From: Candidatus Sericytochromatia bacterium
GTDB taxonomy: Bacteria > Cyanobacteriota > Sericytochromatia > UBA7694 > JACMQJ01
Assembly (NCBI GenBank): GCA_046328015.1
Contig: JAXLXH010000001.1
Span: 2,546,350 to 2,610,349 of the forward strand
DNA length: 64,000 bases
Direction: 5' to 3'
Shown here: one piece after another, positions 4,476-63,578 of the stretch
Layout of the letters: each line of letters starts with the position of its first letter
How positions within the stretch are numbered: position 1 is the first letter of the stretch
Notes under the pieces: generated by a model
What the model was told of the DNA's origin: nothing
The model's database searches: none
The model's input: the letters and a program-made list of their open reading frames with translations, nothing else
Translations under genes and position numbers: made by a program

Positions 4476-4590
4476 TTTTTTAAAATTATGTATTAACAGA
4501 GTGTGGCATTATATTGTGGGTATGAGTGTACTTAATTTATAATCTATAAATGAAAATAAAATGATAAAAATTTAATAATAAAATTAAAAA

Positions 4591-6186
4591 GTGAAAAATG
4601 ATTTAAAACCGTTACCACTAGGTAATGCAACATTCAAAAAAGTAATAGAAGAAGGTTGTATTTATGTAGATAAAACAGAAGAAATACATAAATTAATTGG
4701 AGATAATAAACAAAGTAGATATTATTTTTTATCTCGCCCAAGAAGATTTGGTAAATCATTACTTATAAGCACATTAGAAGAAATTTTTAAGGGAAACAAA
4801 GAGCTTTTTAAAGGGTTATATATTTATGATAAAATAGATTTTAAAAAATACCCAGTAATAAAATTAACAATGAATGACTTAAATTATGCTCAAGGAATAA
4901 AAGACTTTGAAAATTCACTTTTATTTCAAATAAAAAATATTTATGAAACATATAATATAGAACTAAAAGAAAATGATTATATTTTATCATTTAAAAGGCT
5001 TATACAAGAATTATCAAAAAAATCAGAACAAGAAAAAGTTGTTTTACTAATAGATGAATATGACAAACCAATTATTGAATATTTGGGTGATAATATTGAA
5101 CGTGCAACAGAAATGAGAAAAATTTTGAAAAATTTTTATGAAACAATAAAAGCGAATGATCAATATCTTCATTTTGTTTTTTTAACAGGAGTTTCTAAAT
5201 TTTCTAAAACTTCAATTTTTTCTAGTTTGAATAATATAACTGATATAACATTAGATAATGAATTTTCAAAAATAGTAGGGATAAATGAAGAACAATTATA
5301 TGATTATTTTGATGAATATATAAAAATTTTGGCAACAGAAAATCAGTATAGTATAGAAAATATAAAAAAAGAATTAAAATTTTGGTACAATGGGTATTCT
5401 TGGGACGGTAAAAACTTTTTATATAACCCTTATTCTCTATTAAGTGTTTTTAGTAAAAAAAATGTCGATAATTATTGGTTTGAAACAGGAACTCCAACTT
5501 TTTTAATAAAAACTATAAAAGAATACAATATTGATGTTCGTAAATTAGAAAAATTAGTTTTATCTTTAAATAGTTTTTCTTCTTTTGATATTGATAATAT
5601 GAATGTATATGCGTTACTTTTTCAAACTGGTTATTTAACTGTAAAAGAAATAATAAAAAATGGCTTAGAAAGAGAATATGTTTTATCTTATCCAAATAAA
5701 GAAGTAAGAATTTCAATGTTAGAACATTTATTAAATGACTATGTAGGAAAAATAGTAGATGATGATATATCAGTTAATGAAATGGTTCGTAAATTAAAAA
5801 ATAATGATATGGATGGTCTAAAAAATATTTTTATTTCTATTTTTGGAACAATAGCAGTAAAAATGCAACCTAATTCTAATACAACTATTCAAGATAAAGA
5901 ATTATATTATCATACTATTTTTTATTTAATTTTTGTGCTTATAGGTTCTAAAATAAAAGCTGAAGTTTCTACAAATAAAGGTTTTATAGATGCAGTAGTA
6001 GAAACAGATAAATATATTTATATTTTTGAATTTAAAATGGGTAGTACAAAATCAGCAATTAGGCAAATTAAAGATAAAGCTTATTATGAGCCATATTTAG
6101 CTAAAAATAAACAAATCTTTTTGGTAGGTGTAAGCTTTGATTCTAAAACAAAAAATATAAAAAAATGGGTTTTGGAAAAATTATGA
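4591..6186 (+). CDS. predicted AAA-ATPase-like protein with C-terminal PD-(D/E)XK nuclease-like domain (PF09820/DUF1703-type architecture)
   Basis: N-terminal 'YFLSRPRRFGKSLL' motif typical of the predicted AAA-ATPase-like family. C-terminal 'DAVVETDKYIYIFEFKMG' has a D...E-x-K arrangement typical of PD-(D/E)XK. Confidence 0.6.
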   Translation: MKNDLKPLPLGNATFKKVIEEGCIYVDKTEEIHKLIGDNKQSRYYFLSRPRRFGKSLLISTLEEIFKGNKELFKGLYIYDKIDFKKYPVIKLTMNDLNYAQGIKDFENSLLFQIKNIYETYNIELKENDYILSFKRLIQELSKKSEQEKVVLLIDEYDKPIIEYLGDNIERATEMRKILKNFYETIKANDQYLHFVFLTGVSKFSKTSIFSSLNNITDITLDNEFSKIVGINEEQLYDYFDEYIKILATENQYSIENIKKELKFWYNGYSWDGKNFLYNPYSLLSVFSKKNVDNYWFETGTPTFLIKTIKEYNIDVRKLEKLVLSLNSFSSFDIDNMNVYALLFQTGYLTVKEIIKNGLEREYVLSYPNKEVRISMLEHLLNDYVGKIVDDDISVNEMVRKLKNNDMDGLKNIFISIFGTIAVKMQPNSNTTIQDKELYYHTIFYLIFVLIGSKIKAEVSTNKGFIDAVVETDKYIYIFEFKMGSTKSAIRQIKDKAYYEPYLAKNKQIFLVGVSFDSKTKNIKKWVLEKL

Positions 6187-6437: not shown

Positions 6438-7445
6438 TTATTTTATATTGTTTATAAATTTTATTATAAGAGGCATAATTTTTTTATTTAGAGGCAAGTT
6501 AGGATTAATATAGGTTTTTAGATTTTCTGATACATCAATTGGTGCATCTTTCAATATATGATTCATATTTTCTATTATTTCTATTTTTGAATTTTTATTT
6601 GATGAATTTAGTTCTATTGCATTAGCAACACTTACTTGTAAATCTGTTGTGCCTTGAATAATTTGAATATCACAATTAAGATTTTTTATCTCTTTTGCAG
6701 GAGAATATTTTAGCCATGAAATTAAATAATTTTGACTTTTTGTCGCAAATACAAATTTTAATGTAGGATCTTTTATATCATTAACAAGTTTACCTTCTTT
6801 AAGATTTTTTATTATATAATTTAATTCTTCTTGATCAATATTAGGTTTTTTTAATTGTTCTAATAATACTTCACCAGCTTCTTTTCCCAAACCTGCTATA
6901 GATACAAACCCATTTACTTTTTCTTTTTCTGCACTAATTATACTTATTAAAGAACCTTCACTATGACCTAATAAAATTATTTTATTAAATCTTTTATCAT
7001 TTTTAAAAAATTTTATAATTGAAATAAGATCATTAATTCCGTCTTCTAAAGTTATATTTGATAAATTAAAATTATTTATTTTTTCAGGGTGAAGATACCT
7101 TTTATCAAATCTAAAAGAGGCTATTTTATCTTTGGCTAGTTCTTGAGATATATATTTATATGAATTAGTATTTAAGTTTATTTTTAAATCATTTCCATCT
7201 CTATTAATTGAACCAGAGCCAGGTACTATTAAAGCTATAGTTCCATTAGTAAAATTATTTGGTAAATTTAAAGTACCTAATATTTTGCCATCTTTTATAT
7301 TTATTTCTAATTCTTTTTCAACATATTCAATATTATTAGATATAAAAGTATCTTTTGATTTTGAATTATCAATATTTGCAAAAGCTTGGTTGAAACTAAT
7401 TAATAAAAAAGAAAAAAATATTAAATGTAATTTTTTTAAATACAT
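6438..7445 (-). CDS. secreted alpha/beta-hydrolase (serine hydrolase)
   Basis: 'LLGHSEGSLI' nucleophile elbow (GxSxG). Signal peptide 'MYLKKLHLIFFSFLLISFNQAFA'. The ORF-track start at 7478 is probably an N-terminal over-extension. Confidence 0.65.
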   Translation of the reverse strand: MYLKKLHLIFFSFLLISFNQAFANIDNSKSKDTFISNNIEYVEKELEINIKDGKILGTLNLPNNFTNGTIALIVPGSGSINRDGNDLKINLNTNSYKYISQELAKDKIASFRFDKRYLHPEKINNFNLSNITLEDGINDLISIIKFFKNDKRFNKIILLGHSEGSLISIISAEKEKVNGFVSIAGLGKEAGEVLLEQLKKPNIDQEELNYIIKNLKEGKLVNDIKDPTLKFVFATKSQNYLISWLKYSPAKEIKNLNCDIQIIQGTTDLQVSVANAIELNSSNKNSKIEIIENMNHILKDAPIDVSENLKTYINPNLPLNKKIMPLIIKFINNIK

Positions 7446-9756: not shown

Positions 9757-9869
9757 ACGGGGGTGTCTAAAAAGTGTGCGTTAATTATAACGCCCATACT
9801 AAAACACTGGCTTTCACCCTAGTCTTTCGTAAAAAAAAGACCTAGAAAAAGCCTTTTTGGACACACCCG
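9757..9869. repeat. family-B-like MITE with terminal inverted repeats (gggtgtctaaaaag ... ctttttggacacaccc)
   Basis: GC-rich element in the AT-rich arsI-arsC spacer. The ends form a perfect inverted repeat of about 14 bp. Related to the 14081 and 22174 copies ('ttttacgaaa' core). Confidence 0.55.
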
Positions 9870-9948
9870 TTTCAGGGGTACGGGAGCAGAGCCACCCATC
9901 CCTTCCTCCTGCGGGGTTGATAACCCGTAGGAAGTCTTAAATTCATTT
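9870..9948. repeat. family-A GC-rich palindromic element (REP/RPE-like), copy 1
   Basis: 'tttcaggggtacggg...cccttcctcctgcggggttgataacccgtaggaagtcttaaattcatt' shares core and terminus with the copies at 12679 and 63459. Confidence 0.75.
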
Positions 9949-11855: not shown

Positions 11856-12806
11856 TTATTCGGTTACAAATATTACTTTCTTCTCTAAAAACTGAGAATT
11901 AAGCTCTTTTTCATATTCTTGAGCATCAAGTTTTTCTAAATCTTTTGCCTTAATATCAAAATAATTTTTAGCAAATTTTTTATTAAAATCTATTTTAATC
12001 ATTTCTTTTATTCTTACAAGAGATTCTTTAAAAACATTATCATCATATTCATAACGAATATTTTCTATTTTTAGTGGAAAATTTAATTTTTTAGAAAACC
12101 AAATATTTATTTTATCAATATATTTACTTTCGCTAAAATATTCTGTTTTGGGGTATATTTTTATGCGTTCTATGTTAAAAACTTCGCAATCATAACCTTT
12201 AAATTTTTCAGTATAAATTTTTTTATGTTTTATATTTTTTAAAAAATTATAAAGCTTTTTGTTATTTTCAAACATTTCATAATCATAAATATTTTCTATA
12301 GCAAAATCAAAAACTTTGGTATCCTTAGTTAAATTTTTATATTCCATACCAAAATCATTATATTTATCTAAAAAACCGTTAAAAGAATAAAAAATATTTT
12401 TATCTTTATCAATAATAATATAATTTCTAGTATTATCATTACCTAAAGTTGTTATTTTTATTTTATTTTTTATAGTGCTATAAACTTCTTTTTGTCCATA
12501 AAAACCATGGTCTTTTAATATTTCAAGTAAATTAGTTTCAGTAATATTTTCTTTTAATTGGGGATAAACCTTAGTATCATAAGTTATTTCAATATTTTCT
12601 GGTAAAGCATAAGCTTTTTGAAAATTTAAAATAATTAAACTAGTAAAACCAAATAAAAAATATTTTATGATTACTAGAGAAGACCTCAGAGCTCCGCTCT
12701 GGGGTTTCAGGGGGTACGGGGGCATAGCCCCCGATCCCTTCCTCCTACGGGGGATCACCCCCGTAGGAGGTCTTAAATTCATTATTAAAGAATTATTTAA
12801 AACCAC
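11856..12806 (-). CDS. hypothetical secreted protein; N-terminal about 40 codons are read through a family-A repeat
   Basis: Hydrophobic signal-like segment 'IIKYFLFGFTSLIILNFQKAYA'. The only in-frame ATG upstream (MPPYPLKPQ...) lies inside the repeat at 12679-12784. No family assignment. Confidence 0.45.
   Translation of the reverse strand: MVLNNSLIMNLRPPTGVIPRRRKGSGAMPPYPLKPQSGALRSSLVIIKYFLFGFTSLIILNFQKAYALPENIEITYDTKVYPQLKENITETNLLEILKDHGFYGQKEVYSTIKNKIKITTLGNDNTRNYIIIDKDKNIFYSFNGFLDKYNDFGMEYKNLTKDTKVFDFAIENIYDYEMFENNKKLYNFLKNIKHKKIYTEKFKGYDCEVFNIERIKIYPKTEYFSESKYIDKINIWFSKKLNFPLKIENIRYEYDDNVFKESLVRIKEMIKIDFNKKFAKNYFDIKAKDLEKLDAQEYEKELNSQFLEKKVIFVTE
12679..12784. repeat. family-A GC-rich palindromic element, copy 2
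   Basis: 'gagctccgctctggggtttcagggggtacgggggcatagcccccgatcccttcctcctacgggggatcacccccgtaggaggtcttaaattcatt' contains the perfect palindrome cctacgggggatcacccccgtagg and gacctc/gaggtc ends. Confidence 0.8.
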
Positions 12807-13951: not shown

Positions 13952-14080
13952 AAAAAACCCTCAAAGATATAAAATAAAATTCCTTATTAATAATAGTAAA
14001 AATTAAAAAAATATTTCTTCATTTAAAGGTTTTTTAACAATTAAATTTTATATAATTCCTGATGGTTTCAAAAAAACATC

Positions 14081-14174
14081 ATTTTTTACGAAAAATATTG
14101 GTGTAAAACCCAGTATTTTCGTAGAGGAAAAGCACTGTTTTGTCCTCTCCGAGACCCCCAAGGTCTTAATTTTA
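14081..14174. repeat. family-B MITE copy
   Basis: 'ttttacgaaaaatattggtgtaaaacccagtattttcgtagaggaaaagcactgttttg...ggtcttaatttt' matches 22190-22283 almost base for base in the core. Confidence 0.75.
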
Positions 14175-22173: not shown

Positions 22174-22283
22174 GGGGTTGTCCAAAAAGACAATTTTTAC
22201 GAAAAACATTGGGAGAAAACCCAGTATTTTAGTAGGGGAAAAGCACTGCTTTGCCCGTTTTTGGACACCCCCGTAGGTGTGAG
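22174..22283. repeat. family-B MITE copy with inverted termini (ggttgtccaaaaag...gtttttggacaccc)
   Basis: Core identical to 14081-14150. The termini are inverted repeats. Confidence 0.75.
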
Positions 22284-22298
22284 TAAAGATAAAAAATA

Positions 22299-23460: not shown

Positions 23461-24855
23461 TTATTTTTTCAAAATACCATCTAAAACCCTTCTAATTTCA
23501 TTAGTATCTTTCATATAATCAAAAATTTTATTATATTCTTTATTATCAAGATACTGTTTAAAAACTAAAAGATTTTTTATATATTCATCTAAAGCTGTAG
23601 AAACATTTTCCATATTTTGTTCAAAAATAGGTGTCCACATAGCAGGAGAACTTTTTGCTAATCTAACTGTAGATTCAAAACCGCTACCAGCTAAATTAAA
23701 AATAGTAGTTTCATCTTTTTCTTTTTCTAAAACTGTTGCACCCAAAGCAAAAGAGCTTATATGAGATAAATGAGAAACATATGCTATATGTAAATCATGA
23801 GCTTTAGAATCCATATATAAAATTTTCATACCTAAAACTTGATATATTTTTTCAACTTCTTTCACTGCAAAATCATAGCTTTTTTCTTGATCACAGATAA
23901 TACCTGTTTTTTTTGAAAATAAACCAGAAAAAGCGGCTTTAGGTCCAGAATGTTCTGTACCAGCAATAGGATGTCCTGCTACAAAGTTTTTTCTATTTTT
24001 ATGATTTTCAACAGCAAGACAAATATTTTCTTTTGTCGAGCCTACATCAGTAACTATAGTAGTTTCATTTATTTTATCTAAAACATTTTGTAAAACTTTT
24101 TCTGTTGCATTAACAGGTATAGAAACTAGTACTAAATCAGAGCTTTTTACAGCCTCATCTAGTTCTTTTATTTCATCTACAATATTTAATTCCAAAGCTA
24201 ATTTACAATTTTCTTTATTATTATCTACACCTATTATTTTATCTATATAATTAACTTTTTTTAGATCTAAAGCTATAGAACCACCTATTAAACCAAGACC
24301 AATAACTGTAATAGTTTTTAATTTTTCTTTTCTAGGCATGTTTTCTAAAATACTATTGATAAAAGGAGCTTTTGCATTTGTATATTCTTCTCTTATTAAG
24401 CCTTTACTTTCTAAATCTAATTTTAATTTTTCATATTCTTCAGCTTTATTTGGATTATTATTCATATAATCTCTAAAAAAAATAGTTTTATTATAATCTT
24501 CAGAGTTTAATTCAAACATATGTATATGAAATTTAACTATTTCACCTATAGTTCTAAAATAGTGTCTTTTTTCTATACCAAATTCTCCCATGAATTCATA
24601 ACCAATTTTTTTTAATCCTTCTATACAGTTAAAACCATCATCAAATTTAGTTATTCCTATACATATATCTATAATTGGCTTTGCGGAAATATTTTTTATA
24701 GAGGTACTTCCAACATGATCTATGGTTTTTATATAAGGAGCGATTTCTCTTAGAATTTTATTTTTTTCATTTTCAAATTCTTTTATCCATAGTTCATTAT
24801 GAGGAAATAATTTTATTTCACCTTTTTTTAAACCTATTATATTTTCTTTATTCAT
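23461..24855 (-). CDS. tyrA: GrpB-domain / prephenate dehydrogenase (TyrA) fusion
   Basis: N-terminal GrpB/UPF0157-like domain 'FPHNELW...IDHVGSTSI'. Central Rossmann 'ITVIGLGLIGGSIALDL' and the TyrA catalytic region. Confidence 0.75.
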   Translation of the reverse strand: MNKENIIGLKKGEIKLFPHNELWIKEFENEKNKILREIAPYIKTIDHVGSTSIKNISAKPIIDICIGITKFDDGFNCIEGLKKIGYEFMGEFGIEKRHYFRTIGEIVKFHIHMFELNSEDYNKTIFFRDYMNNNPNKAEEYEKLKLDLESKGLIREEYTNAKAPFINSILENMPRKEKLKTITVIGLGLIGGSIALDLKKVNYIDKIIGVDNNKENCKLALELNIVDEIKELDEAVKSSDLVLVSIPVNATEKVLQNVLDKINETTIVTDVGSTKENICLAVENHKNRKNFVAGHPIAGTEHSGPKAAFSGLFSKKTGIICDQEKSYDFAVKEVEKIYQVLGMKILYMDSKAHDLHIAYVSHLSHISSFALGATVLEKEKDETTIFNLAGSGFESTVRLAKSSPAMWTPIFEQNMENVSTALDEYIKNLLVFKQYLDNKEYNKIFDYMKDTNEIRRVLDGILKK

Positions 24856-24867
24856 ATTTTTATTTTT

Positions 24868-24958
24868 CCTTGTCAGAATCAGGATTCACAAGATTTTAGG
24901 ATTAACAGGATTATTTTTTATTAGAACAACCCAATCCTAAAAATCTTGATTCAGAAAT
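24868..24958. repeat. family-C MITE with terminal inverted repeats (tctgaatcaggatt...aatcctaaaaatcttgattcaga)
   Basis: Termini are inverted and match the 25343-25446 copy. Lies between the tyrA start and the GxxExxY stop. Confidence 0.75.
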
Positions 24959-25329
24959 TATTTTTTACCTTTAAAAATTTTTTTATATTGTAAACTACTA
25001 GAACCAAAATTTATTAATAATCCTATTGGAAAATCATAAGCCACAACATAATTTTTTGCTTGTGCTAAGTGTATATCTTCCAAATTTATTAAAGCTTTTA
25101 ATTCAACTACAACACAATTTTCTACGATAAAATCTGCTCTTCTTGTTCCTACATTTATACCATCATAAAAAATAGGTTGCTCTTTTTCTTTTTCAAAAGA
25201 TAATCCAGCACGTTCAAACTCAATACTTAAACATCTTTGATAAATAACTTCTTGAAAGCCGTTACCCAAAGTATTATGTATTTTCATTGCTCCACCAATA
25301 ATTTTATATGTTATTTCTTCTAATTCCAT
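24958..25329 (-). CDS. GxxExxY-family protein (PD-(D/E)XK-like), bracketed by two family-C MITEs inside the aromatic operon
   Basis: 'KIIGGAMKIHNTLGNGFQEVIYQ' carries the GxxExxY motif. 123 aa. Confidence 0.7.
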   Translation of the reverse strand: MELEEITYKIIGGAMKIHNTLGNGFQEVIYQRCLSIEFERAGLSFEKEKEQPIFYDGINVGTRRADFIVENCVVVELKALINLEDIHLAQAKNYVVAYDFPIGLLINFGSSSLQYKKIFKGKK

Positions 25330-25342
25330 TTTATTTTCCTTT

Positions 25343-25446
25343 GTCTGAATCAGGATTCACTGGATTTTAGGATTAGCAGGATTATTTTGCATTAGATTAA
25401 CCCAATCCTGTAAATCTTTTAATCCTGAAAATCCTGATTCAGACAA
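25343..25446. repeat. family-C MITE copy
   Basis: 'tgtctgaatcaggattcactggattttaggatt...aatcctgaaaatcctgattcagaca' has perfect terminal inverted repeats. Overlaps the aminotransferase stop. Confidence 0.75.
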
Positions 25447-26596
25447 TTATCCTTTCAGAAGCATCTTTTAATCTATCAACACTAGCACATAAAGAAATTC
25501 TTATATATCTTTTTCCATTATTTCCAAAAATAAAACCAGGGGTAATAAAAACATGCTTTTTAGCTAAAATATCTTCTATTAATTCTTCTCCACTGTTTAA
25601 AGCATCTGGAATTTTAGCCCAAAAAAACATACCTTCTTGATTTTCACTATATTTGCAATTTAAAGCATTTAGTATCTCTTTTGCATAAAATTTTCTTTTA
25701 TTATATTCTTCATTTCTTTTGTCATGCCATTCTTCAGAGTTTTTTAAGGCTTCTATTGCTGCATGCTGAACAGGTAAAAACATTCCAGAATCTATATTAC
25801 TTTTGAATTTTAAAATAGTATCAATATATTCTTTTTTTCCAGAAATCCATCCAATTCTCCAACCAGCCATATTATGAGATTTACTAAGAGAATTTAATTC
25901 TAAGCAAACTTCTTTTGCATTAGGTAAAGATAAAATACTAGTAGGTTTGTCAGTATTTAAAACTAAACTATAAGGATTATCATGACATAATAAAAACTTT
26001 TTTTCTAAGGCTAAATTAATTAATTCTTCAAAAACTTTTTTATCAGCTTTTGCTCCTGTAGGCATATTAGGATAGTTCAACCACATAATTTTTACTTTGG
26101 ATAAATCCATAGCTTTTAATTCTTCAATATTTGGTTGCCAATTATTATTTTCGGTTAAATTGTATTTTTTTATAATTCCACCAGCTAAATTAGTTACAGA
26201 AGAATATGTTGGATAAGAAGGATCTGCAATTAATACTTCATCGCCATTATTTAAAAAAGCCATAGAAATATGCAAAATACCTTCTTTAGAACCAATTAAG
26301 GGTAAAAGTTCTGTTTCAGGATTAAGTTCAACTTGATAAGTTTTTTTAGTCCATTCTGCAATAGCTTTTCTAAAATCAGGAATACCTTTATAAGCTTGAT
26401 AACTATGATTTTTAGGATTTTTTGCTGAATTTATTAAGGCATTAACTGTTTCTTCAGATGGAGGCATATCAGGGCTTCCAATACCTAAATTTATAACATC
26501 TAGGCCTTCATCTTGCATTTTTTTTATTTGTGCAAGTTTAGAAACAAAATAATATTCGCTTACATTATCTAATCTTTTGGCTTGTTCAATTATCAT
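25439..26596 (-). CDS. class I/II PLP-dependent aminotransferase (aromatic/aspartate type)
   Basis: 'SLSKSHNMAGWRIGW' PLP-lysine motif. Position between pheA and tyrA. Confidence 0.75.
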   Translation of the reverse strand: MIIEQAKRLDNVSEYYFVSKLAQIKKMQDEGLDVINLGIGSPDMPPSEETVNALINSAKNPKNHSYQAYKGIPDFRKAIAEWTKKTYQVELNPETELLPLIGSKEGILHISMAFLNNGDEVLIADPSYPTYSSVTNLAGGIIKKYNLTENNNWQPNIEELKAMDLSKVKIMWLNYPNMPTGAKADKKVFEELINLALEKKFLLCHDNPYSLVLNTDKPTSILSLPNAKEVCLELNSLSKSHNMAGWRIGWISGKKEYIDTILKFKSNIDSGMFLPVQHAAIEALKNSEEWHDKRNEEYNKRKFYAKEILNALNCKYSENQEGMFFWAKIPDALNSGEELIEDILAKKHVFITPGFIFGNNGKRYIRISLCASVDRLKDASERIIV

Positions 26597-27447
26597 AAAT
26601 ATTTTTCTCCTACTAAATATTCACCCAAAACAGTTAGTTCATTTACAGTTTTATTTACTATTTCTAAGGCTTTTTTATAAATAAAATAATCATTAAATTC
26701 TAAATCTAAATGAAAAAAGTATTCCCATTCTCTTCCTAAGACAGGTAAAGATTGAATCTTAGTTAAATTAATATCCAAACTAGCAAATGATATTAAAATA
26801 TTTGCCAAACTACCACTTTTATGGCTTAAGTTAAAACATATAGAGGCTTTATTTGCTTTATCATTTAAAATTTTAGAGCAGTTATTTTCGTTTATATCTT
26901 CATTTTCTTTTATTATTAAAAATCTAGTATAGTTTCTTTTATTTGTTTCAATGCTTTCAGCTAAAACTTCTAAATCAAAAGCTTCTGCTGCTTCCAAACT
27001 TGCAATAGCTCCAATTCCTTTTAAGTTTTTTTCTCTTATTTCTTTTGCACTTAAAGCTGTATCTGTACTTTCAGCTAATTTTATATTTGGGTAATAAGTT
27101 TCAAAAAAATCTTGGCATTGCAATAAAGCCATTTGATGAGATCTAACTTCTGTTAATTCTTCTATTTTTTGATTTGGTAAAGCCATAAGATTTTGTTGAA
27201 TCCTTAAATAGACTTCTCCTATAATATTTACATTGTAATCTCTTAATAAAGCATAATTAGGTAAAATCGAACCAGCTACAGTATTTTCTATGGCTACAAC
27301 TCCAAAATTAACTTCTTGTCTTTCCAAAGAATTAAAAACTTCTTTGAAAGTTTCGCACATAACTACTGCTATTTCTTTTCCAAAAAACTTATTTGCAGCT
27401 ATTTCATGGAAAGAAGCTCTAAATCCTTGTATTGCTATTTTTTTATT
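26593..27447 (-). CDS. pheA: prephenate dehydratase
   Basis: PDT catalytic domain plus C-terminal ACT. Start 'MNKKIAIQGF' at 27447. The extra 10 codons in the track (MSYESGVKI) and the GGAG of the SD lie inside the family-D repeat. Confidence 0.8.
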   Translation of the reverse strand, partial: NKKIAIQGFRASFHEIAANKFFGKEIAVVMCETFKEVFNSLERQEVNFGVVAIENTVAGSILPNYALLRDYNVNIIGEVYLRIQQNLMALPNQKIEELTEVRSHQMALLQCQDFFETYYPNIKLAESTDTALSAKEIREKNLKGIGAIASLEAAEAFDLEVLAESIETNKRNYTRFLIIKENEDINENNCSKILNDKANKASICFNLSHKSGSLANILISFASLDINLTKIQSLPVLGREWEYFFHLDLEFNDYFIYKKALEIVNKTVNELTVLGEYLVGEKYL

Positions 27448-27466
27448 CATTATCTTAACTCCAGAT

Positions 27467-27563
27467 TCATAACTCATCCCCCTCCCCCCTTCTCTTTGTT
27501 AAAAGAGAAGAGGGAACTAACAATAACTCCCTCTCTTTAGATGAAGAGAGGGTTGGGGTGAGT
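27467..27563. repeat. family-D MITE copy 1 (cataactcatccccctcccccttctctttgttaaaagagaag...agagggttggggtgagtt)
   Basis: Termini are inverted (actcatcccc / ggggtgagt). About 92% identical to 30821-30917, in the same orientation. Confidence 0.8.
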
Positions 27564-27582
27564 TCTGATATATTCAAACAAA

Positions 27583-27612
27583 AAAGCCTCGGTTTAAATC
27601 GAGGCTTTTTGC
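27583..27612. terminator. bidirectional rho-independent terminator
   Basis: 'aaaaagcctcggtttaaatcgaggcttttt' is a 6-bp GC stem with A-run and T-run flanks. Immediately downstream of the minus-strand SEC-C gene. Confidence 0.6.
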
Positions 27613-27811
27613 TATATCTTTTTCTTGGCAACAAAAACTACCACGATTTTTCAATCGAATAATAATAGTAATAATAGTTGCTTTTAAAACTCATTTTAAA
27701 TTTTTTTTAAACTAAAAATAATTTATATATTAGATTTTATCAGAAAATTTTATGCTACGAGTAAAAATATTAAAAAACTTTACAAGTAAGTTTATTTTAC
27801 ATTACTTAATA

Positions 27812-28294
27812 TTAATCCCCACAACATTTTTTATATTTTTTACCACTGCCACAATAACAGGGATCATTTCTTCCTATTTTAGTATTTATTTTATTTTTAG
27901 GATTAATACCATCTACATAAAACCATTTACCTGCTTCTTTTTTAAAAAAGGATAATTCATGTAAAAAATCATTCTCTCCTTTATAATTATAACTAGCAAT
28001 AAATTCTACATAACCTATATTGTCATTAATAAGCCCATCTTTAGTTTTAACTATTTCTAATTTTAACCATTTAGAATTAATAGACCATTCTTCCATACTT
28101 TTATAAGTATATAAACTTTTTTTTGTTTCATGTGTTGTATCTATTAAGTAATTAATTTCTGTTTTTGCATAAGCTGAATATCTTGATCTCATTAATTTTT
28201 CAGCAGTTTCTGGTAATTTTACTTTTTTATGAAAGGGTTCACAACATTCAATATATAATAATTCTGAGCAACAAGGGCATTTTTCTTGGTTCAT
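27812..28294 (-). CDS. SEC-C motif / YchJ-like (UPF0225) metal-binding protein
   Basis: N-terminal 'CPCCS' and C-terminal '[17 protein letters not shown]' SEC-C zinc-binding motifs. Confidence 0.6.
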
Positions 28295-28392
28295 TAAAAA
28301 TATCTAAAAAATATCTAAAAATACTAATTATTAAATATTATACTTAAATATGATAAACTTAGACATCTTATTTTTATTGGTTTTTATAATTT

Positions 28393-30756
28393 ATGTCATC
28401 ATCATTTGATTTTATTTTGAATATAATAAATAAAATTAGTAAAAAACTAAATATAACTAATATTTATTCTTTTAATGAAGATGATTTAATTATTGATTTA
28501 CCTTTAAAAAAAATTGCTTTAAGCAAAGTCATCGAAGAAACTAAAAATGAAGAAGTTTTTATTGGGTTTTTAAAAAATATTCCTATATATACTATAATAA
28601 AAAATTTAAATATAGAAAAAGATCTTTTTCTGATTAATCTAAGTAATATAGAATTATCTTTTGGAATTAAAAATACTTTAAAAAGAAATGACATAAATAT
28701 TTTAAATATAAATCCTGATATTTCTATTATTTATAAAACTAAAAATCAAGTACTTATTGATTTTATAACTAAAATAACTTATTTTTCAAATTTTATAAAT
28801 ACTACTAAAACAGAAACTGATTATCATAATTATATAAATTTAAATTCTGAAAAAATAGATTTATTTAGATCTGATATAAGAATAGCTAATTTATATAACG
28901 ATATAAATTCTGGAAAATATAAAGTCTTATCTATAGATTTTTTTGATACTTTAGTTTTTAGATTATGTTCTATGCCAAATGGATTATTTCTTACTTTATA
29001 TAAAAAACTTTTAAAAGAAGGTCTTATTGAAGATATTTATAATAAAGAAGAATTTATGGTTATAAGACAAGTAGCAGAAGTATCAGCAAGACAAGAATTA
29101 ATAAAAAATGGTGTAGTAGAAATAACAATAGAGCAAATATATGCTAAATTAATTAATTTAATTAGTGATATTCCTAAAGCAATAGATATAGAAAAAAATT
29201 TAGAAATAGAATTTTGTTTTGTTAATCCCTTTTTAGAGTCATTAATAAAATATGCTAAAGCTAAAGGTATAACTATAATTATTACTTCTGATATGTACTT
29301 AGCTCAAACTGATTTAAAAAATATTTTAGCTAATAATAATTTTGATGTATCTTTGATAGATTATTTTTTTGTATCATCAGAATATAATGCTTCTAAATAT
29401 GATAAAACACTTTATTATAAAATTTTTAATTATTTTAATATAAAATCAAATGAATTAATTCATATAGGCGATAATATTGGTTCCGATTATAATAATGCAG
29501 TTGAATTAGGAATAAAATCTTATCTTTACATAGATCATCAGTATTTATTAAATTCAAGACAAGGTGAAGGTTACTTAATTAATCATAAATTAAATGATTA
29601 TTCTAATATAGCTTTTAGAAAAATTTTTTCTAATATGTTTATAAGTGAAGATGTGAAAGAAAATATTCTTTTTAAATTAGGTACAACTACTTTAGCACCA
29701 ATTCTAACCTCTTATATTTATTGGGTATTATTTGAAGCAAAAAGAAAGAATATAAAAAATATTTTAGTAGTAATGAGAGATGGTGATATTTTTGCAGAAA
29801 TGCTTAAAAAAGTATCTTTATCTTTAGACTATGATTTAAATATAGCGTATTTTTATAGTTCCAGATTATCATCTATTTTACCAGCACTTTATGAAGATCT
29901 TTCTATAGATAACTTAATTATTTCTACTAGGTTTTTACTTAATACAGAAAATAAATTTGCAGAAACCAAAACTATTTTAAGTAAATTAAGTTTAACTTTT
30001 TCTGATAGTTTTTTTTATGAACATAAATTACCTAAAATTGTTGAGCTTGATAATGAAAATCTTGGTAATTTTTTTAAAAAAATATTATCTACAGATTTAA
30101 AAGAACAATTAGAATATTTAATAAAAGAAAGAACGTCAAATTTTTTAGAGTACACTTTATCTTTAATAACAGAAAATAACTCTAATGAAAATATAGGTAT
30201 TATTGATTTGGGTTATGGAGGAAGTGTTCAAAGTTTTTTACAAAGAATTTTTAAACATAAAAAAATAAATTATACCTTATATGGATTATATCTATTTACT
30301 AATAAGGGTATATTAGATAAGCCTTTAAAAGAAAAAAGTTTTTATAAGTCTTATTTATCATCTGTATTTTTTTCTAGTAGTTTGATTAATTCTTATTCAA
30401 CCCATTTAGGTGTTTTTGAAACAATATTATCTTCTTTAGTTGGAACGGCTGTCAATTATAATGATAATTTTTTAGGAGTGAATCAAGAATTGGCTGAAGT
30501 AAAAGAAAGTTCTACTTATAAAGTAATTAATAAAATAAAAGAGGGGATTCTTTTATATAATGATTTTTATACTAAAATAGTAAGTTCAAAAAAAGATTTA
30601 TTTTTAAATTATTTTTTTGATAAGAATTATATATTACAAGAAAATTCAGCTATTTTAGCCAGATTCCATGCTATGCCTTTCGAAGAAGAATTAGCTGTTT
30701 TAAATACATTAGATTGTAAAATATGGTTAGAAGAAAGTCTTAAAAATAAAAAATAG
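28393..30756 (+). CDS. 787-aa fusion protein: unknown N-terminal domain + HAD-superfamily hydrolase core + about 400-aa uncharacterised C-terminal domain
   Basis: HAD motif I 'VLSIDFFDTLVFR' (DxDT), motif II 'IITSD', motif IV 'IHIGDNIGSDYNNA'. No match recalled for the flanking domains. Confidence 0.55.
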   Translation: MSSSFDFILNIINKISKKLNITNIYSFNEDDLIIDLPLKKIALSKVIEETKNEEVFIGFLKNIPIYTIIKNLNIEKDLFLINLSNIELSFGIKNTLKRNDINILNINPDISIIYKTKNQVLIDFITKITYFSNFINTTKTETDYHNYINLNSEKIDLFRSDIRIANLYNDINSGKYKVLSIDFFDTLVFRLCSMPNGLFLTLYKKLLKEGLIEDIYNKEEFMVIRQVAEVSARQELIKNGVVEITIEQIYAKLINLISDIPKAIDIEKNLEIEFCFVNPFLESLIKYAKAKGITIIITSDMYLAQTDLKNILANNNFDVSLIDYFFVSSEYNASKYDKTLYYKIFNYFNIKSNELIHIGDNIGSDYNNAVELGIKSYLYIDHQYLLNSRQGEGYLINHKLNDYSNIAFRKIFSNMFISEDVKENILFKLGTTTLAPILTSYIYWVLFEAKRKNIKNILVVMRDGDIFAEMLKKVSLSLDYDLNIAYFYSSRLSSILPALYEDLSIDNLIISTRFLLNTENKFAETKTILSKLSLTFSDSFFYEHKLPKIVELDNENLGNFFKKILSTDLKEQLEYLIKERTSNFLEYTLSLITENNSNENIGIIDLGYGGSVQSFLQRIFKHKKINYTLYGLYLFTNKGILDKPLKEKSFYKSYLSSVFFSSSLINSYSTHLGVFETILSSLVGTAVNYNDNFLGVNQELAEVKESSTYKVINKIKEGILLYNDFYTKIVSSKKDLFLNYFFDKNYILQENSAILARFHAMPFEEELAVLNTLDCKIWLEESLKNKK

Positions 30757-30820
30757 TATTTATATAAAAGTAAATTTAAATATTAAAAAAAGTTGCTAGT
30801 ACACTGTAAAGTAAGTCTTA

Positions 30821-30917
30821 CATAACTCATCCCCCTACCCCTTCTCTTTGTTAAAAGAGAAGGGGAGAAAGTTAAGATACCCCTCTCTAATGACTTAGAG
30901 AGGGGTTGGGGTGAGTT
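30821..30917. repeat. family-D MITE copy 2, itself inserted inside a 12-bp inverted repeat (aagttgctagta / tactagcaactt)
   Basis: Direct repeat of 27467-27563. The flanks at 30790-30801 and 30938-30949 are perfect inverted repeats. Confidence 0.8.
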
Positions 30918-30926
30918 AAGATAAAA

Positions 30927-30964
30927 AGAATTTTTTGATACTAGCAACTTAGATTAATTAAATA
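30927..30964. repeat. about 38-bp element 'atttaat(taat)ctaagttgctagta.aaaaaatt.ttttta' (reverse-complemented here); second copy at 35690..35728
   Basis: Near-identical sequence immediately 3' of two minus-strand genes (flotillin, ddl). Confidence 0.55.
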
Positions 30965-30971
30965 AAAATAC

Positions 30972-33029
30972 TTATTCTGAAATAGAATTCATAATTTTAT
31001 CTTTCATTTTTTTAATTTTTTCATTATCATCTTTTTTATTGGTTAAATCTACTCCCAATTTTTCACTTAAGATTAAAGAGATAAGAGCTTCAAAGGCATT
31101 AAAACTACTATTATTTTCAGCATTTCCTCCCATACTAATAATAGTTTTAGGAACAATATCTATATTACCTTGTTTGATAGCATCAGTAAAACGAACCATT
31201 ATATCTTGCATAATTTGATATTTAGCTCCACCATAAGCATTAACTTGTTCTTCCATTGCTATAGCTTTGCCTATACCTACTTGAGCTTCTTTTTCAGCTT
31301 CAGCTTCAGCTATTTTTTTAATTTTTTCTGATTCTCCATCAGCTAAAATTCTTATTTTTTCAGCCTCACCATTTGCAAGGGTTCTTATTTTCTCTGCTTC
31401 GGCAGAAGCTAATATTTTTATTTTTTCAGCTTCTTGTGTTGCTTTTTTATATTCAGCTTTACCTTTATTTTCTTCTACTTCTATATCTATAGATGAAGCT
31501 GTAAGATTTTTTTGTTGTTCAGCTTTGGCTTCAGATTCTCTTAATTCCCTTTCTTTAGTAGCAGCTCTTTGTTGAACTTCATAGGTTTTTACTTTTTCTT
31601 CTGCAATTTGTCTTTCTCTTAGTTGAGTAAGTATAGTTTCTATTTTAGTATCATTAGGAGAACTGCTAGGAGTACCTATTAAAACTTCTTCTAATTCTAA
31701 ATTATATCTATCAAATTTTTCAGCCATTTCTGTATGAGCTATATCTTGTAATTCTCTTCTATTATGAATTAACTCAATTAAAGTTTTAGTTTGACCAATA
31801 TTTTTGAAATAAGAACTTATCATAGGATCTAAAGATTGTTCAACTAATTTTGTAATATCTCCAAATCTTTGTATAACTAAGGGAGCTTTTTTATAATCTA
31901 TATGTATTACTATACTAAGAGGTAGTAAAGGTTCAAAAGCATCTTTGGTTATAAGAGAAACTTCTTTTAAGTTTTCATCGTATTTATGTGTTCCAAATTG
32001 AGTACTAATCCATTTTAAAATAATATTGGTAGTTGGAACTGGAATTATTTTACCAGAATAAGTGTTAAAAGCATATTTACCAGGCATTAAAGGTTCACTC
32101 CAAACACCACTATAACCTTTTTCTACTAATTCTCCATGAGTGTAAGCATCCCCTGATTGATCTGTTCCTTTTTCTCCGGTATAAGATACAACTACTCCTA
32201 CATAACCAACATCAATTATAGTTTTATTTATTAGTTCAACAGTAGCAAAAAGTCTATTAATATAATAAGTTCCATCTACTAAAACGTGATGTTGTCTTCC
32301 TCTAAAACCTCCAGCTAATAAAAATTTTTCTATATCTTGAAAATTATTATGATAAGTAGCTTGGTTATTAGGATTATCTCCAACAATAGGAGCTATAATT
32401 TGTCCATTTGGTAAAGATTTACCATCATGAGTAGTTAATATTCCAATTTTATCTTCATTTCCTCTTATTACTATAGGATAAAAAGCATCTCTAGCTAATA
32501 ATACTTTATGCATGTTATCTACAGCATCTTTTTCTGTTGTATTTTCTAGAGGAAAATAATAAACTCTATTCGATGTAAATATTATAAATTGAGCAAGATT
32601 AAAAGCATAAGTTCCTTCTCTTACGATTTCTCTTTGTTGTCCTTTTTGTCCACCATTATATAAAAAACCTCTAACATCTTGAAAGTTATTTCCTTTACTT
32701 ACAACTTTAGCTAAAGTTTGTGTTGGATCTAAAGGTTTTCCATCTCTTGCAAATACATATCCTATTTGTCCTTGTGGAATAGTAACAAGTGGTAAAATAT
32801 GTATTTTATACATAATAGGAGATCTAAAATGGATACCTCCTCTTAAAACTTCTGCTTGAATACCAGCTTCTCCATCTAAAGCTATAATTTTATCACTTAA
32901 AGAGCCTTTTGGTGACCACCATTTTTCTACAATTCCTATTTTATTGTTAGGTATAATTCTAAGTCCCATAATTTTTAAAACAATAAAACTTATACCTATA
33001 AAAGTAATTAAAAAAACTAAAAAATTCAT
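30972..33029 (-). CDS. flotillin / SPFH (band-7) family membrane protein, long form
   Basis: N-terminal TM, SPFH domain, C-terminal 'EAEKIR..ADGE.EKI' flotillin repeats and 'MGG' tail. No adjacent NfeD partner. Confidence 0.75.
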   Translation of the reverse strand: MNFLVFLITFIGISFIVLKIMGLRIIPNNKIGIVEKWWSPKGSLSDKIIALDGEAGIQAEVLRGGIHFRSPIMYKIHILPLVTIPQGQIGYVFARDGKPLDPTQTLAKVVSKGNNFQDVRGFLYNGGQKGQQREIVREGTYAFNLAQFIIFTSNRVYYFPLENTTEKDAVDNMHKVLLARDAFYPIVIRGNEDKIGILTTHDGKSLPNGQIIAPIVGDNPNNQATYHNNFQDIEKFLLAGGFRGRQHHVLVDGTYYINRLFATVELINKTIIDVGYVGVVVSYTGEKGTDQSGDAYTHGELVEKGYSGVWSEPLMPGKYAFNTYSGKIIPVPTTNIILKWISTQFGTHKYDENLKEVSLITKDAFEPLLPLSIVIHIDYKKAPLVIQRFGDITKLVEQSLDPMISSYFKNIGQTKTLIELIHNRRELQDIAHTEMAEKFDRYNLELEEVLIGTPSSSPNDTKIETILTQLRERQIAEEKVKTYEVQQRAATKERELRESEAKAEQQKNLTASSIDIEVEENKGKAEYKKATQEAEKIKILASAEAEKIRTLANGEAEKIRILADGESEKIKKIAEAEAEKEAQVGIGKAIAMEEQVNAYGGAKYQIMQDIMVRFTDAIKQGNIDIVPKTIISMGGNAENNSSFNAFEALISLILSEKLGVDLTNKKDDNEKIKKMKDKIMNSISE

Positions 33030-33594: not shown

Positions 33595-35247
33595 TTATTT
33601 TTTATCTTTAATTAATTTTTCAGTTTGCCCAGTTCTCATATATAAGTTAATTAGGTTACTATAGGCTTTACTAAAATTTGGATCTAATTTTAAAGCTTCA
33701 TTATAAAACTTTTCTGCTCTTTTATCATTTTTATTCATTTCATAACAAAAACCTATATTATTATAAGCAGTTGCATTTTTTTTAATATTTAGAGCCTTTT
33801 CTGAAAATTTTATACAATTTAAAGCATCTTTATTTTCTAAATAAGCAAAACCTAAATTAATAAAATCTGATTCATTTTTAGAACCTAATTCTATACTTTT
33901 TAAATAATAAGGAATTGATTCTTTATATTTATTTTGATTTATATAATTATCTCCTATTAAAGAGGTAATATTATAATTTTTTGAATCAAGTTTTAAAGCT
34001 TTTATTAAATAGGTTTCACTATCTCTAAATTGAGAAAATCTTTTATATAAATCAGCTATTTCTAAATAAATTGAAGTATTTTTATTCTTATTAGATAATT
34101 CTTTTTCATTTAAAAGATATTTTTCATAAAAAAATTCAGCTTTATCAAGGTTATTTGTTACGTTATAAAAATAAGCTAATTCATAATTTATTTTATTTGT
34201 TTTTTCTTTGGATAATAAATTTTTAGTTATTTTGTTAAATATTTGATCATTATTTAAAATAGAAAATAGATATAATTTTAAAAGTTCTTTATTATTATCA
34301 AATTTTATTAGCTCAAGCCCTTTTTTTATTAATGAAGTATTTTTACTTAGTTTATTAGTTATATCATAATATTTTTTACTATTTTCTTTATCATTAATTA
34401 AATAATAAAAAGAAGCTAGACAAAAATATCCATAAGGACTTTTGGGAAAAATATTAACAAATTCTTTCATATGATTTATAGCTTTATTTATATTGTTTTC
34501 TTCTAAATATATAAATGATATGTTATAAAAAGCTTCAAACGATTTTTTATTTATTTTTATTAGTTTTTCATAATATTGAATGGCTTGATTATTATTATTA
34601 TCCAATTGTTCTGAATAAGCTAAAAAAAGTAAAGCATTCTGGTTATCAGGATTATTTAAAAGTAATTCTTCAGACATTTTTTTGCAGAAAAATATATAAT
34701 TTTTATTTTTTAAATTACTTTCTTCTAAAAAAAATGAAATTAATTCTTCTAAATCTTTGGTATTATTTGATTTATTTAAAAAATTTTCAGCTGTTTTTAT
34801 AAATAAATCATTTGAATATAATTGATTTTCTACTTCTTTTAAAGATTTTATATTATTAATTACTTCATTATATTTTTTGTCTAATAAAAAAATTTGAGAT
34901 TTAATTAAATAAGCTTCTTTATTTTTTTTATTTAAACTGATACATTTATCTATAAATTTTAAAGCTTTATCGTATTCATTTTTTTCTAAATATATTCTAC
35001 CTATTTCTAAATTTGTATAATAATAAAATTCATTTATAAATTCTTCTTTTTTATTTGAATTTTTTTCTATAAGTCCAAATTTTAAAGGGAAAATATTTTT
35101 TTCTAAACTTTTTTCTAAATAGAATAAACATTTATTTTTTTCATTTAAGTTTTTATAGGCATTAGCTAAAATAAATAGTTCTATAGAATTAAGAGTTTCT
35201 TTTTTATTTTCTATTAAATCAATAGTTTTTTTGTAATAACCCATCAT
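33595..35247 (-). CDS. TPR-repeat protein; 5' region (35248..35590) appears frameshifted
   Basis: Multiple TPR-like 'A..Y.' repeats. Upstream in other frames there is a signal peptide (MNKKFILTLSSILFCFF at about 35590) and further TPR-like sequence, separated by at least 2 frame breaks. Confidence 0.6.
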   Translation of the reverse strand: MMGYYKKTIDLIENKKETLNSIELFILANAYKNLNEKNKCLFYLEKSLEKNIFPLKFGLIEKNSNKKEEFINEFYYYTNLEIGRIYLEKNEYDKALKFIDKCISLNKKNKEAYLIKSQIFLLDKKYNEVINNIKSLKEVENQLYSNDLFIKTAENFLNKSNNTKDLEELISFFLEESNLKNKNYIFFCKKMSEELLLNNPDNQNALLFLAYSEQLDNNNNQAIQYYEKLIKINKKSFEAFYNISFIYLEENNINKAINHMKEFVNIFPKSPYGYFCLASFYYLINDKENSKKYYDITNKLSKNTSLIKKGLELIKFDNNKELLKLYLFSILNNDQIFNKITKNLLSKEKTNKINYELAYFYNVTNNLDKAEFFYEKYLLNEKELSNKNKNTSIYLEIADLYKRFSQFRDSETYLIKALKLDSKNYNITSLIGDNYINQNKYKESIPYYLKSIELGSKNESDFINLGFAYLENKDALNCIKFSEKALNIKKNATAYNNIGFCYEMNKNDKRAEKFYNEALKLDPNFSKAYSNLINLYMRTGQTEKLIKDKK

Positions 35248-35689: not shown

Positions 35690-35728
35690 ATTTAATCTAA
35701 GTTGCTAGTATAAAAAAAATTTTTTATA
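35690..35728. repeat. second copy of the 'aagttgctagta'-containing 3' element
   Basis: 'atttaatctaagttgctagtataaaaaaaattttttat', compare 30927..30964. Preceded by the hairpin 'agattgaataaaaattcaatct'. Confidence 0.5.
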
Positions 35729-63438: not shown

Positions 63439-63458
63439 TTATACCTCTTTCTATAATC

Positions 63459-63578
63459 AATTTAAGACCTCATGCAGGGGGGACACCCTGTAGGAGGAGG
63501 GCAGCTTTGGCTCTGCCTATATACCACCCTGAAAACCTAGAGCATAGCTCTTAGATATTCTCTAATAAGAATAAAATT
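63459..63578. repeat. family-A GC-rich element copy 3 (reverse orientation) with 'attctctaataagaataaaatt' tail
   Basis: Reverse complement aligns to 12679-12784 ('gagct.tgctct.gg.tttcaggg.gg.a...cctcctac.ggg...cc.tg.a.gaggtcttaaatt'). Confidence 0.75.

Follow-up and report, generated by a model that had tools for sequence, protein, structure and literature searches.

Candidate BoxC-type repeat pairs at two intergenic sites between pheA and a flotillin-type gene of a Sericytochromatia bacterium

The interval between pheA and the flotillin-type gene

The stretch of DNA considered here (hereafter 'the window') comprises 64,000 nucleotides of the genome of Candidatus Sericytochromatia bacterium (GenBank assembly GCA_046328015.1, contig JAXLXH010000001.1, positions 2,546,350 to 2,610,349) and carries two same-orientation copies of a G/C-rich intergenic repeat that we call family D. 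On the minus strand, the pheA gene (26593-27450), which codes for a prephenate dehydratase with a PDT domain, is preceded by copy 1 of the repeat (27471-27564), a palindromic terminator hairpin (27581-27610) and a short leader open reading frame (ORF; 27638-27694). Beyond these features lie a minus-strand gene for a 160-amino-acid YchJ-like protein with a SEC-C motif (27812-28294), recognized by a Pfam scan, and a plus-strand gene for a 787-amino-acid HAD-like protein (28393-30756), whose HAD matches are weak and fall just under the Pfam cut-offs. Copy 2 (30824-30917) is located between the latter gene and a convergent, minus-strand gene that the Pfam scan assigns to the SPFH/Band 7 proteins (flotillin-type, YqiK-like; 30972-33029).

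A preliminary description of this region viewed the two repeats as MITEs (miniature inverted-repeat transposable elements) that bound a 3.3-kb cassette of two genes. The analysis presented below leads us to another explanation, which as a whole we consider likely: family D elements are head-to-head pairs of units of the BoxC type, and the two copies occupy two intergenic sites independently and do not delimit a cassette.

Sequence and predicted fold of the two copies

Both copies are about 94 nucleotides long and lie in the plus orientation. They had been described as 97-bp elements of about 92% identity at 27467-27563 and 30821-30917; the two like-oriented copies are indeed present, but their identity is 80-81%, with 25 nucleotides as the longest exact run in common, and the boundaries shift slightly to those given above. 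The 12-mer AACTCATCCCCC is found in the window at the two copy sites only, where 0.02 matches would be expected by chance. The copies resemble each other in their termini, in hairpin 1 including its loop, and in the stem of hairpin 2, but not in the linker or in the loop of hairpin 2. The window as a whole has a G+C content of 24.5%.

The inverted termini previously reported for each element are present (ACTCATCCCC / GGGGTGAGT) and form an outer stem in both copies, such that the predicted fold of each is a Y shape composed of this outer stem and two hairpins. Hairpin 1 is formed by the arms CCCCTTCTCTT / AAGAGAAGGGG and hairpin 2 by the arms CCCCTCTCT / AGAGAGGGG. Copy 1 has a fold energy of -45 kcal/mol (z = -5.9) and copy 2 one of -55 kcal/mol (z = -7.7), and RNA from either strand is predicted to fold very stably. 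A covariance model built from 15 copies (2 from the window and 13 from public sequences) scores copy 1 at 76 bits and copy 2 at 91 bits, and it detects no third copy in the 64 kb.

Several other families of G/C-rich intergenic repeats are present in the window (9839-9944, 12665-12784 and 63455-63548; also 14073-14171 and 22184-22292). These include sequences of the type ...CCTACGGGG...CCCGTAGGAGGTCTTAAATTC, which occur in both orientations, and the scan described next assigns none of them to the triplex-motif type.

Each element as a proposed pair of triplex-type units

The elements variously named BoxC, PIT or TM_ECO follow the pattern 5'-CCCTCNCCC-N3-6-GGGNGAGGG-N3-GGGNGAGGG-3' and are potentially able to adopt an intrastrand purine-motif triplex (Holder et al. 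2015, PMC4666352). We scanned the window according to this published logic, in which a pyrimidine arm, a loop of 3-9 nucleotides, a complementary purine arm and a loop of 1-6 nucleotides precede a third block. This block is read in the antiparallel sense, such that each G of the purine arm faces a G and each A faces an A or a T; no more than one mismatch was tolerated in each of the two comparisons. In the 64 kb, the purine arm reaches 50% G+C or more in just four motifs, each spanning 10-12 positions, and these are the two halves of each family D copy. The 20 remaining matches are 8-9 nucleotides long with no more than 38% G+C, and most are nearly pure A/T.

The minus-strand unit of copy 1 (27471-27514; CCCTCTTCTCTT / AAGAGAAGGGGG / GGGGGATGAGTT) covers 12 positions with one hairpin mismatch and no triplet mismatches, and its plus-strand unit (27528-27564; TCCCTCTCTT / AAGAGAGGGT / GGGGTGAGTT) covers 10 positions. 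The corresponding minus-strand unit of copy 2 (30823-30865; CCCCTTCTCTTT / AAAGAGAAGGGG / GGGGATGAGTTA) covers 12 positions without a mismatch, and its plus-strand unit (30880-30917; CCCCTCTCTA / TAGAGAGGGG / GGGGTGAGTT) covers 10 positions. All four window units obey the mirror rule of BoxC-type elements, which admits G.G:C, A.A:T and T.A:T triplets, with one mismatch at most.

In the arrangement we propose, the pyrimidine arm, loop and purine arm of a unit would form a hairpin, and 1-3 nucleotides farther on a third block would mirror the purine arm. The minus-strand unit would consist of hairpin 1 together with the 5' terminus, and the plus-strand unit of hairpin 2 together with the 3' terminus. 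Judged from its sequence, a family D element is RC(unit 1)-linker-unit 2, where RC denotes the reverse complement; its two units, each a potential intrastrand purine-motif triplex, stand head-to-head. Inversion of one unit relative to the other makes the third blocks complementary to each other, which accounts for the 'inverted termini', for the outer stem and for the Y fold.

The imperfection of the termini is also accounted for. The 5' terminus contains one additional T (AACTCA-T-CCCC) as the mirror of an additional A in hairpin 1 (AAGAGA-A-GGGG), and this A is what sets hairpin 1 (AAGAGAAGGGG) apart from hairpin 2 (AAGAGAGGGG). Nothing in a plain stem model would predict such a correspondence.

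Distribution of family D in public genomes

An exact-pattern scan, which specified only the two termini and left the internal hairpins free, placed family D at 14 loci of species-representative genomes and at a further 15 of JGI metagenomes, for a total of 29 beyond the window; the same scan recovered no copy from viral contigs. A blastn search against plasmids additionally uncovered a variant in Pseudanabaena (CCCTCATCCCCC...GGAGAAGGGG...GGAGAGGGG-CTA-GGGGTGAGGG), which the family D model scores at 64-69 bits. It was a literature match to the sequence string of this variant that led us to the report of Holder et al. 2015. With these 29 loci and the cyanobacterial plasmid variants in hand, family D is a dispersed repeat, as had been surmised, and not a local tandem duplication.

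The genome records that carry family D are metagenome-assembled genomes named as Chrysiogenia, Aminicenantes, Magasanikbacteria/Patescibacteria, Bacteroidetes and Acidobacteriota, and the loci range in G+C from 36% to 66%. Near-identical sequences flank the element in contigs whose phylum assignments differ, as with Chrysiogenales and Patescibacteria (L010/L011/L019, L008/L013/L017 and L002/L012). Such shared flanks signify either mis-binning or the same organism or locus, and the phylum count for family D is therefore an upper bound.

Although the pattern did not specify them, the internal hairpin stems have the same sequence as in the window in almost all public loci, while the loops and the linker vary freely. 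Compensatory change is nearly nil (3 of 30 pairs; covariation term +0.08). The mirror rule is satisfied by both halves in 27 of the 29 public loci and by at least one half in every public copy; in L004 and L009 the hairpin-2 half alone passes, and L029 scores only on the hairpin-2 half of each of its two copies. The rule is also kept where sequences vary, with the purine arm and the third block changing together (AAGAGAGGGG/GGGGTGAGTT, GGAGAGGGG/GGGGTGAGG, AAGGGGAGGG/GGGAGGGGTT and GGGGAAGGG/GGGATGGGG).

Some loci carry family D tandems with spacers of about 11 nucleotides (L020/L022/L024, for example L024 at 7147-7345; L007; L023; and the L014/L027 group), and in some of these an unrelated hairpin is nested within hairpin 1. 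L014 and L027 contain clusters in which several triplex-type units differ from one another in sequence. On L029, a metagenome contig of 256 kb, near-identical direct copies of family D type with longer outer stems (GGGGAAAACTCA...) are found at 3214-3328 and 4561-4676, where they flank a single gene for a 394-amino-acid protein between dnaE and thrS.

Copies of family D are found in all gene-orientation contexts, including between convergent and between divergent genes. Where the flanking genes are co-directional, the plus form of the element is antisense in seven of nine cases, a small number that relies on naive and crude gene calls. The element is likewise antisense at both of the Pseudanabaena loci that were inspected.

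We also considered whether family D could be a structured RNA, namely a three-way junction that acts in cis as a regulatory or stabilizing element of transcripts. The stability of the folds from both strands, the folding of copy 1 within the context of the pheA leader region, and the 7 to 2 antisense ratio together with the two Pseudanabaena loci would agree with this idea. However, no Rfam family is matched, the stems are conserved in sequence rather than by compensatory change, every orientation and context is represented, and the junction nucleotides are not conserved. Moreover, RNA does not adopt purine-motif triplexes (cited in PMC4666352). We accordingly regard an RNA function as very improbable. 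The best Rfam match, to BTnc231, reaches 28.8 bits under permissive thresholds against a threshold of 80.4 and is driven by the adjacent terminator, and it was rejected. Ribozymes of the hammerhead or twister type were also dismissed owing to the lack of conserved junction nucleotides. Counts of G.U versus C.A pairs did not single out a functional strand.

Copy 1 in the pheA operon leader

Copy 1 lies within the 5' leader of pheA, between the terminator hairpin and the ribosome-binding site. It had been proposed that this copy donates the Shine-Dalgarno (SD) sequence of pheA, which proves to be wrong. All five aligned PheA homologues begin with MN or MK at the position of M10 of the long ORF, and this fixes the pheA start at the ATG at 27450. 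Its own SD sequence, GGAG (27460-27463), is separated from the start codon by an 8-nucleotide spacer and resides outside the element. The upstream ATG at 27477, which is inside the element, is an artefact of choosing the longest ORF.

Two related loci, L033 and L034, whose PheA proteins are 80% identical to that of the window, carry the operon pheA-aminotransferase-GrpB-tyrA-DAHP synthase/chorismate mutase. Upstream of their pheA genes is a short ORF (MNFVNKNYYYYYYTIKKSW, then a stop codon), followed by a terminator hairpin with a T-run and, about 60 nucleotides on, by pheA. The minus strand of the window presents the same order, with a tyrosine-rich leader ORF of 18 codons (MSFKSNYYYYYYSIEKSW, then a stop codon) running from 27694 to 27638 and a terminator hairpin running from 27610 to 27581, and the alignment is convincing across both features. 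The hairpin is palindromic and was called on the plus strand by the terminator scan, and a T-run is present on the minus strand as well. The leader ORF is conserved in L033, L037 and L039; the more distant L037 and L039 have leader ORFs rich in tyrosine and phenylalanine, followed by a terminator, upstream of pheA.

From these alignments, the hairpin at 27581-27610 is best read as the pheA attenuator, and not simply as a terminator of the YchJ-like gene. The leader peptide and the terminator look like the parts of a classical leader-peptide attenuation system for an aromatic amino-acid operon (pheA-aminotransferase-tyrA-aroG/chorismate mutase). The leader is found in four contigs of Sericytochromatia type (window 27581-27694; L033 4164-4280; L037; L039), and its Rfam matches are limited to weak ones of the Phe_leader or Thr_leader type.

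Relatives with PheA proteins of 64-81% identity retain the leader and the attenuator and lack the family D element, and the triplex scan uncovered no triplex-type motif in about 91 kb of the relatives' loci. Compared with L033 and L034, the window alone has copy 1 between the attenuator and the ribosome-binding site of pheA. Because the leader and attenuator are intact in relatives without the element, copy 1 is probably an insertion into the 5' leader of pheA. The expectation that relatives would exhibit an empty site is thus borne out for copy 1, at the homologous pheA site, but no such site was obtained for copy 2.

The same operon exhibits two further peculiarities. GrpB and prephenate dehydrogenase are fused in one ORF of 464 amino acids (23461-24855), whereas they are encoded by separate adjacent genes in L033 and L034, and GrpB is absent from L037 and L039. 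A gene for a 123-amino-acid PD-(D/E)XK protein (PDDEXK_3; 24958-25329) is flanked by direct repeats of about 90 nucleotides that are 87% identical (24858-24947 and 25329-25418), each of which is a hairpin that ends in an SD sequence. This unit (24856-25438) lies between the aminotransferase and GrpB-tyrA genes. Given that the aminotransferase and GrpB genes of L033 and L034 overlap with nothing between them, the 583-bp PDDEXK_3 unit is a true repeat-flanked insertion in the operon.

Copy 2 within a larger inverted repeat

Copy 2 is nearly centred in a 12-bp perfect inverted repeat, as had been noticed previously, with the left arm (AAGTTGCTAGTA) at 30790-30801 and the right arm at 30939-30950. 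When random positions in the A/T-rich window were sampled, an inverted repeat of at least 12 bp was found in 31 of 5000 placements (0.6%). Reading the minus strand downstream of the flotillin-type gene's stop codon, one arm is followed by 21 nucleotides, copy 2, 22 nucleotides, the other arm and then TTTTTTT. The arms and copy 2 together fold with a predicted energy of -76.9 kcal/mol (z = -10.3). Based on this model, the outer hairpin probably serves as the terminator of the flotillin-type gene, with copy 2 at its apex.

It had also been suggested that copy 2 inserted into a pre-existing hairpin. Its location at the apex of a larger inverted repeat fits this history, which nevertheless stays conjectural because no empty homologue was found: the closest usable flotillin relative (L015, 76% identity) is non-syntenic, and its downstream region is unrelated. 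To judge from the sequences available, insertion would be the origin of both family D copies.

A 20-mer (TTAATCTAAGTTGCTAGTAT), followed by an A-run, is found on the minus strand at the right arm (30936-30957) and again in an unrelated intergenic region (35690-35711); it could represent a further small repeat or a signal common to both sites.

The segment between the copies

The two direct copies might delimit a unit of 3.3 kb, containing the YchJ-like and HAD-like genes, that either moves as a composite or can be lost by recombination. Beyond the direct orientation of the copies that bracket the block, several observations lend this idea some appeal. The gene upstream of the pheA leader is different in every relative examined (a lipoprotein-like ORF in L033, TacA1 in L037 and a kinase in L039), and the L029 contig offers a parallel in its two direct copies around one gene between dnaE and thrS. 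TM_ECO sites have been tied to local rearrangement (PMC4666352), and mobile units flanked by MITEs are known in Acinetobacter (PMC10969869).

However, the content of the interval argues strongly otherwise. The copies do bracket two large genes between pheA and the flotillin-type gene, but they do not bracket exactly these, given that the leader ORF, the attenuator and presumably the pheA promoter also lie between them. Excision would strip the operon of its promoter and its conserved leader. Similarity to L033 and L034 continues across the attenuator and leader and fades before the YchJ-like gene (27812), and not at the edge of copy 1 (27564). Inspection of the outer flanks revealed no target-site duplication around the composite. 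The Pfam scan of seven large ORFs between 23461 and 33029, which did not extend to the ORF at 33595-35247, identified no recombinase, integrase or transposase.

The copies are 81% identical, with exact runs of 25 nucleotides at most, and this divergence indicates coexistence without homogenization. Similarity of this extent sits at the lower limit of what RecA-dependent recombination requires. Physically, a deletion between the copies could occur, but pheA would then lack a promoter and leader. As the window holds just two copies, a direct orientation has an even prior chance.

The HAD-like protein has a paralogue of 51% identity elsewhere on the same 3.55-Mb contig of the same genome, and the low G+C content of its gene (15-22%) is equalled by other poorly conserved genes nearby, such as those at 33.1-35.8 kb. 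Thus, the near-identical flanks, outer duplication and purely accessory cargo of a MITE-flanked or composite cassette are not seen here, and we assign very little probability to a mobile or readily deleted unit. In the account we favour, each copy occupies its own intergenic site independently of the other, and the annotation of a mobile or deletable cassette is withdrawn.

Mobility and the proposed explanation

Family D behaves as mobile, or at least as gained-and-lost, DNA, and we asked whether its copies are true MITEs. In that case, they would be independent insertions mobilized in trans by a transposase that recognizes the inverted termini. The elements are small (94 nucleotides), non-coding and bounded by inverted termini of 10/11 nucleotides (AACTCATCCCC / GGGGTGAGTT), and they are dispersed over many genomes while the pheA site of relatives is empty. 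Tandem arrays with spacers of about 11 nucleotides, nested hairpin insertions and the location of copy 2 inside a larger palindrome would be in keeping with such insertions.

However, the best flank matches of 25 unique copies average 1.64 nucleotides, compared with 1.91 for shuffled pairings, and thus there is no target-site duplication. By eye, the naive ORFs beside the 14 genome copies, which were not scanned for protein families, included no conspicuous transposase-like product. Holder et al. (PMC4666352) found none for BoxC either. Conservation extends over whole stems and is not confined to the termini, and the termini are explained by their mirror relation to the internal hairpins, which is a prediction that a transposase-binding model does not make. 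For these reasons the label 'MITE' was not retained, and we consider it unlikely that family D is a MITE in the strict sense.

According to the explanation we favour, BoxC-type unit pairs would be dispersed intergenic DNA repeats with patchy presence among relatives. We know of no transposase for elements of the BoxC type. Copy 1 would have inserted into the 5' leader of the pheA-aminotransferase-tyrA operon, between the attenuator with its tyrosine-rich leader and the SD sequence, and the operon transcript would carry this copy in antisense form as a stable structure. Copy 2 would occupy the apex of the terminator-like hairpin that follows the flotillin-type gene. The conserved constraint on these elements may be folding at the level of single-stranded DNA.

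Several points weigh against this explanation and merit appropriate caution. The termini of the 29 public copies were set by the search pattern, and independent evidence for the mirror rule thus comes from the hairpin arms and the blastn variants. The Y-shaped Watson-Crick fold is by itself very stable in prediction and could be the selected structure, either in DNA or in RNA. The literal TM_ECO consensus has no match in the window, where the family D arms are CCCCTCTCTT / AAGAGAGGGG / GGGGTGAGTT, and the family D covariance model gives the E. coli BoxC pair only 16 bits. The kinship is therefore an argument from architecture, which would be compatible with common descent from a BoxC ancestor and also with convergence on the same structural rule. 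Finally, the two direct copies around one gene in L029 leave room for a link between family D and variable segments.

A bolder proposal is that head-to-head pairs are a single DNA element that spreads horizontally across phyla, with E. coli BoxC as one branch, and that inserts into hairpins and leaders in a manner dependent on structure and independent of a transposase, thereby seeding gene turnover. If this were true, then the YchJ/HAD block and the gene between dnaE and thrS in L029 would be products of insertion promoted by the element. We present this proposal as a speculation with a rather low chance of being correct.

We judge the most useful new facts to be the comparison of filled and empty pheA leaders and the wide distribution of the head-to-head variant, whose stems are near-identical across genomes that range from 25% to 66% G+C. 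The repeats, if correctly placed, are relatives of the BoxC/PIT triplex motifs, a class whose function and spread have remained unexplained for 30 years. The leader of an attenuated operon, available in filled and empty form, is a concrete place to ask about effects on transcription or replication and about the route of insertion. There is also a lesson for annotation, in that a pair of repeats in like orientation around genes does not amount to a cassette, and small regulatory features between the repeats should be checked first.

Comparison with known repeat systems

Bacterial MITEs such as Correia, Nezha and Chunjie have been reviewed (PMC10969869). Like them, family D elements are short and lack coding capacity, lie between genes, carry inverted repeats at their ends, fold into stable hairpin-type structures and vary in presence among relatives. 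Like copy 1, the Chunjie MITE can sit inside an operon without destroying it. Family D differs in that it exhibits no target-site duplication, has no known parent insertion sequence, carries conserved internal stems that are mirror-related to its termini, and is G/C-rich within an A/T-rich genome.

The REP/BIME and RAYT-mobilized REPIN sequences are also short palindromic intergenic repeats, which sometimes form inverted pairs and fold as single-stranded DNA. In contrast to these, family D has two hairpins plus termini in place of a single palindrome. By inspection it carries no tag of the GTAG/CGTC type, and no RAYT gene was seen near its copies.

Integron attC sites share with family D a structured, imperfectly palindromic form of about 60-140 nucleotides and a direct orientation between genes, and their AAC...GTT ends are superficially alike. 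However, the bases that follow GTT in family D do not conform to GTTRRRY, the Pseudanabaena variant ends in GAGGG, and tandem copies have spacers of about 11 nucleotides. The supposed cassette, with two divergent genes, a presumed promoter and a leader, is also unlike an integron cassette. Identification as attC was rejected, given that the core sites RYYYAAC ... GTTRRRY are lacking and that neither intI nor another integrase gene is among the scanned ORFs of 23461-33029.

The closest resemblance is to BoxC, which was reportedly treated in earlier work by Bachellier in the 1990s and by Hoyne and Maher in 2000 and 2002. As in BoxC/PIT/TM_ECO, a family D unit has a pyrimidine arm, a loop, a purine arm, a short loop and a mirror-image, purine-rich third block, and the cores are almost the same (...GAGAGGG(G)-TT(A)-(G)GGGTGAG...). 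The TM_ECO elements have conserved stems and variable loops, are always intergenic and have no strand bias, and inverted pairs are present at 5 of the 18 TM_ECO sites of E. coli MG1655 (PMC4666352). They are not associated with transposons, phages, plasmids or mobility genes, and their flanks are more variable and their neighbourhoods more rearranged than those of control sites (PMC4666352). G/C-rich triplex motifs of a BoxC-like kind have furthermore been reported as abundant in Cyanobacteria (PMC4666352).

Conserved stems, free loops, a strictly intergenic location, the lack of a consistent gene context, inverted pairs, patchy presence among relatives and the lack of associated mobility genes are common to BoxC/PIT/TM_ECO and family D. 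Family D likewise has no fixed orientation or gene class, and every one of its elements is an inverted pair. The two differ in detail. Family D stems end in A/T (AAGAG... / ...GAGTT) and extend over 10-12 positions rather than 9, with a second loop of 1-3 nucleotides. The family D units are arranged head-to-head, with the third blocks on the outside forming the outer stem, whereas the BoxC pair between hrpB and mrcB of E. coli is tail-to-tail (unit, 16 nucleotides, RC(unit)). The hosts are also unlike E. coli, being Sericytochromatia and metagenome-assembled genomes assigned to Aminicenantes, Patescibacteria, Chrysiogenia, Acidobacteriota and Bacteroidetes. By its sequence architecture, family D is thus best classified as a new member of the BoxC-like class of triplex-motif repeats, distinct from TM_ECO itself.

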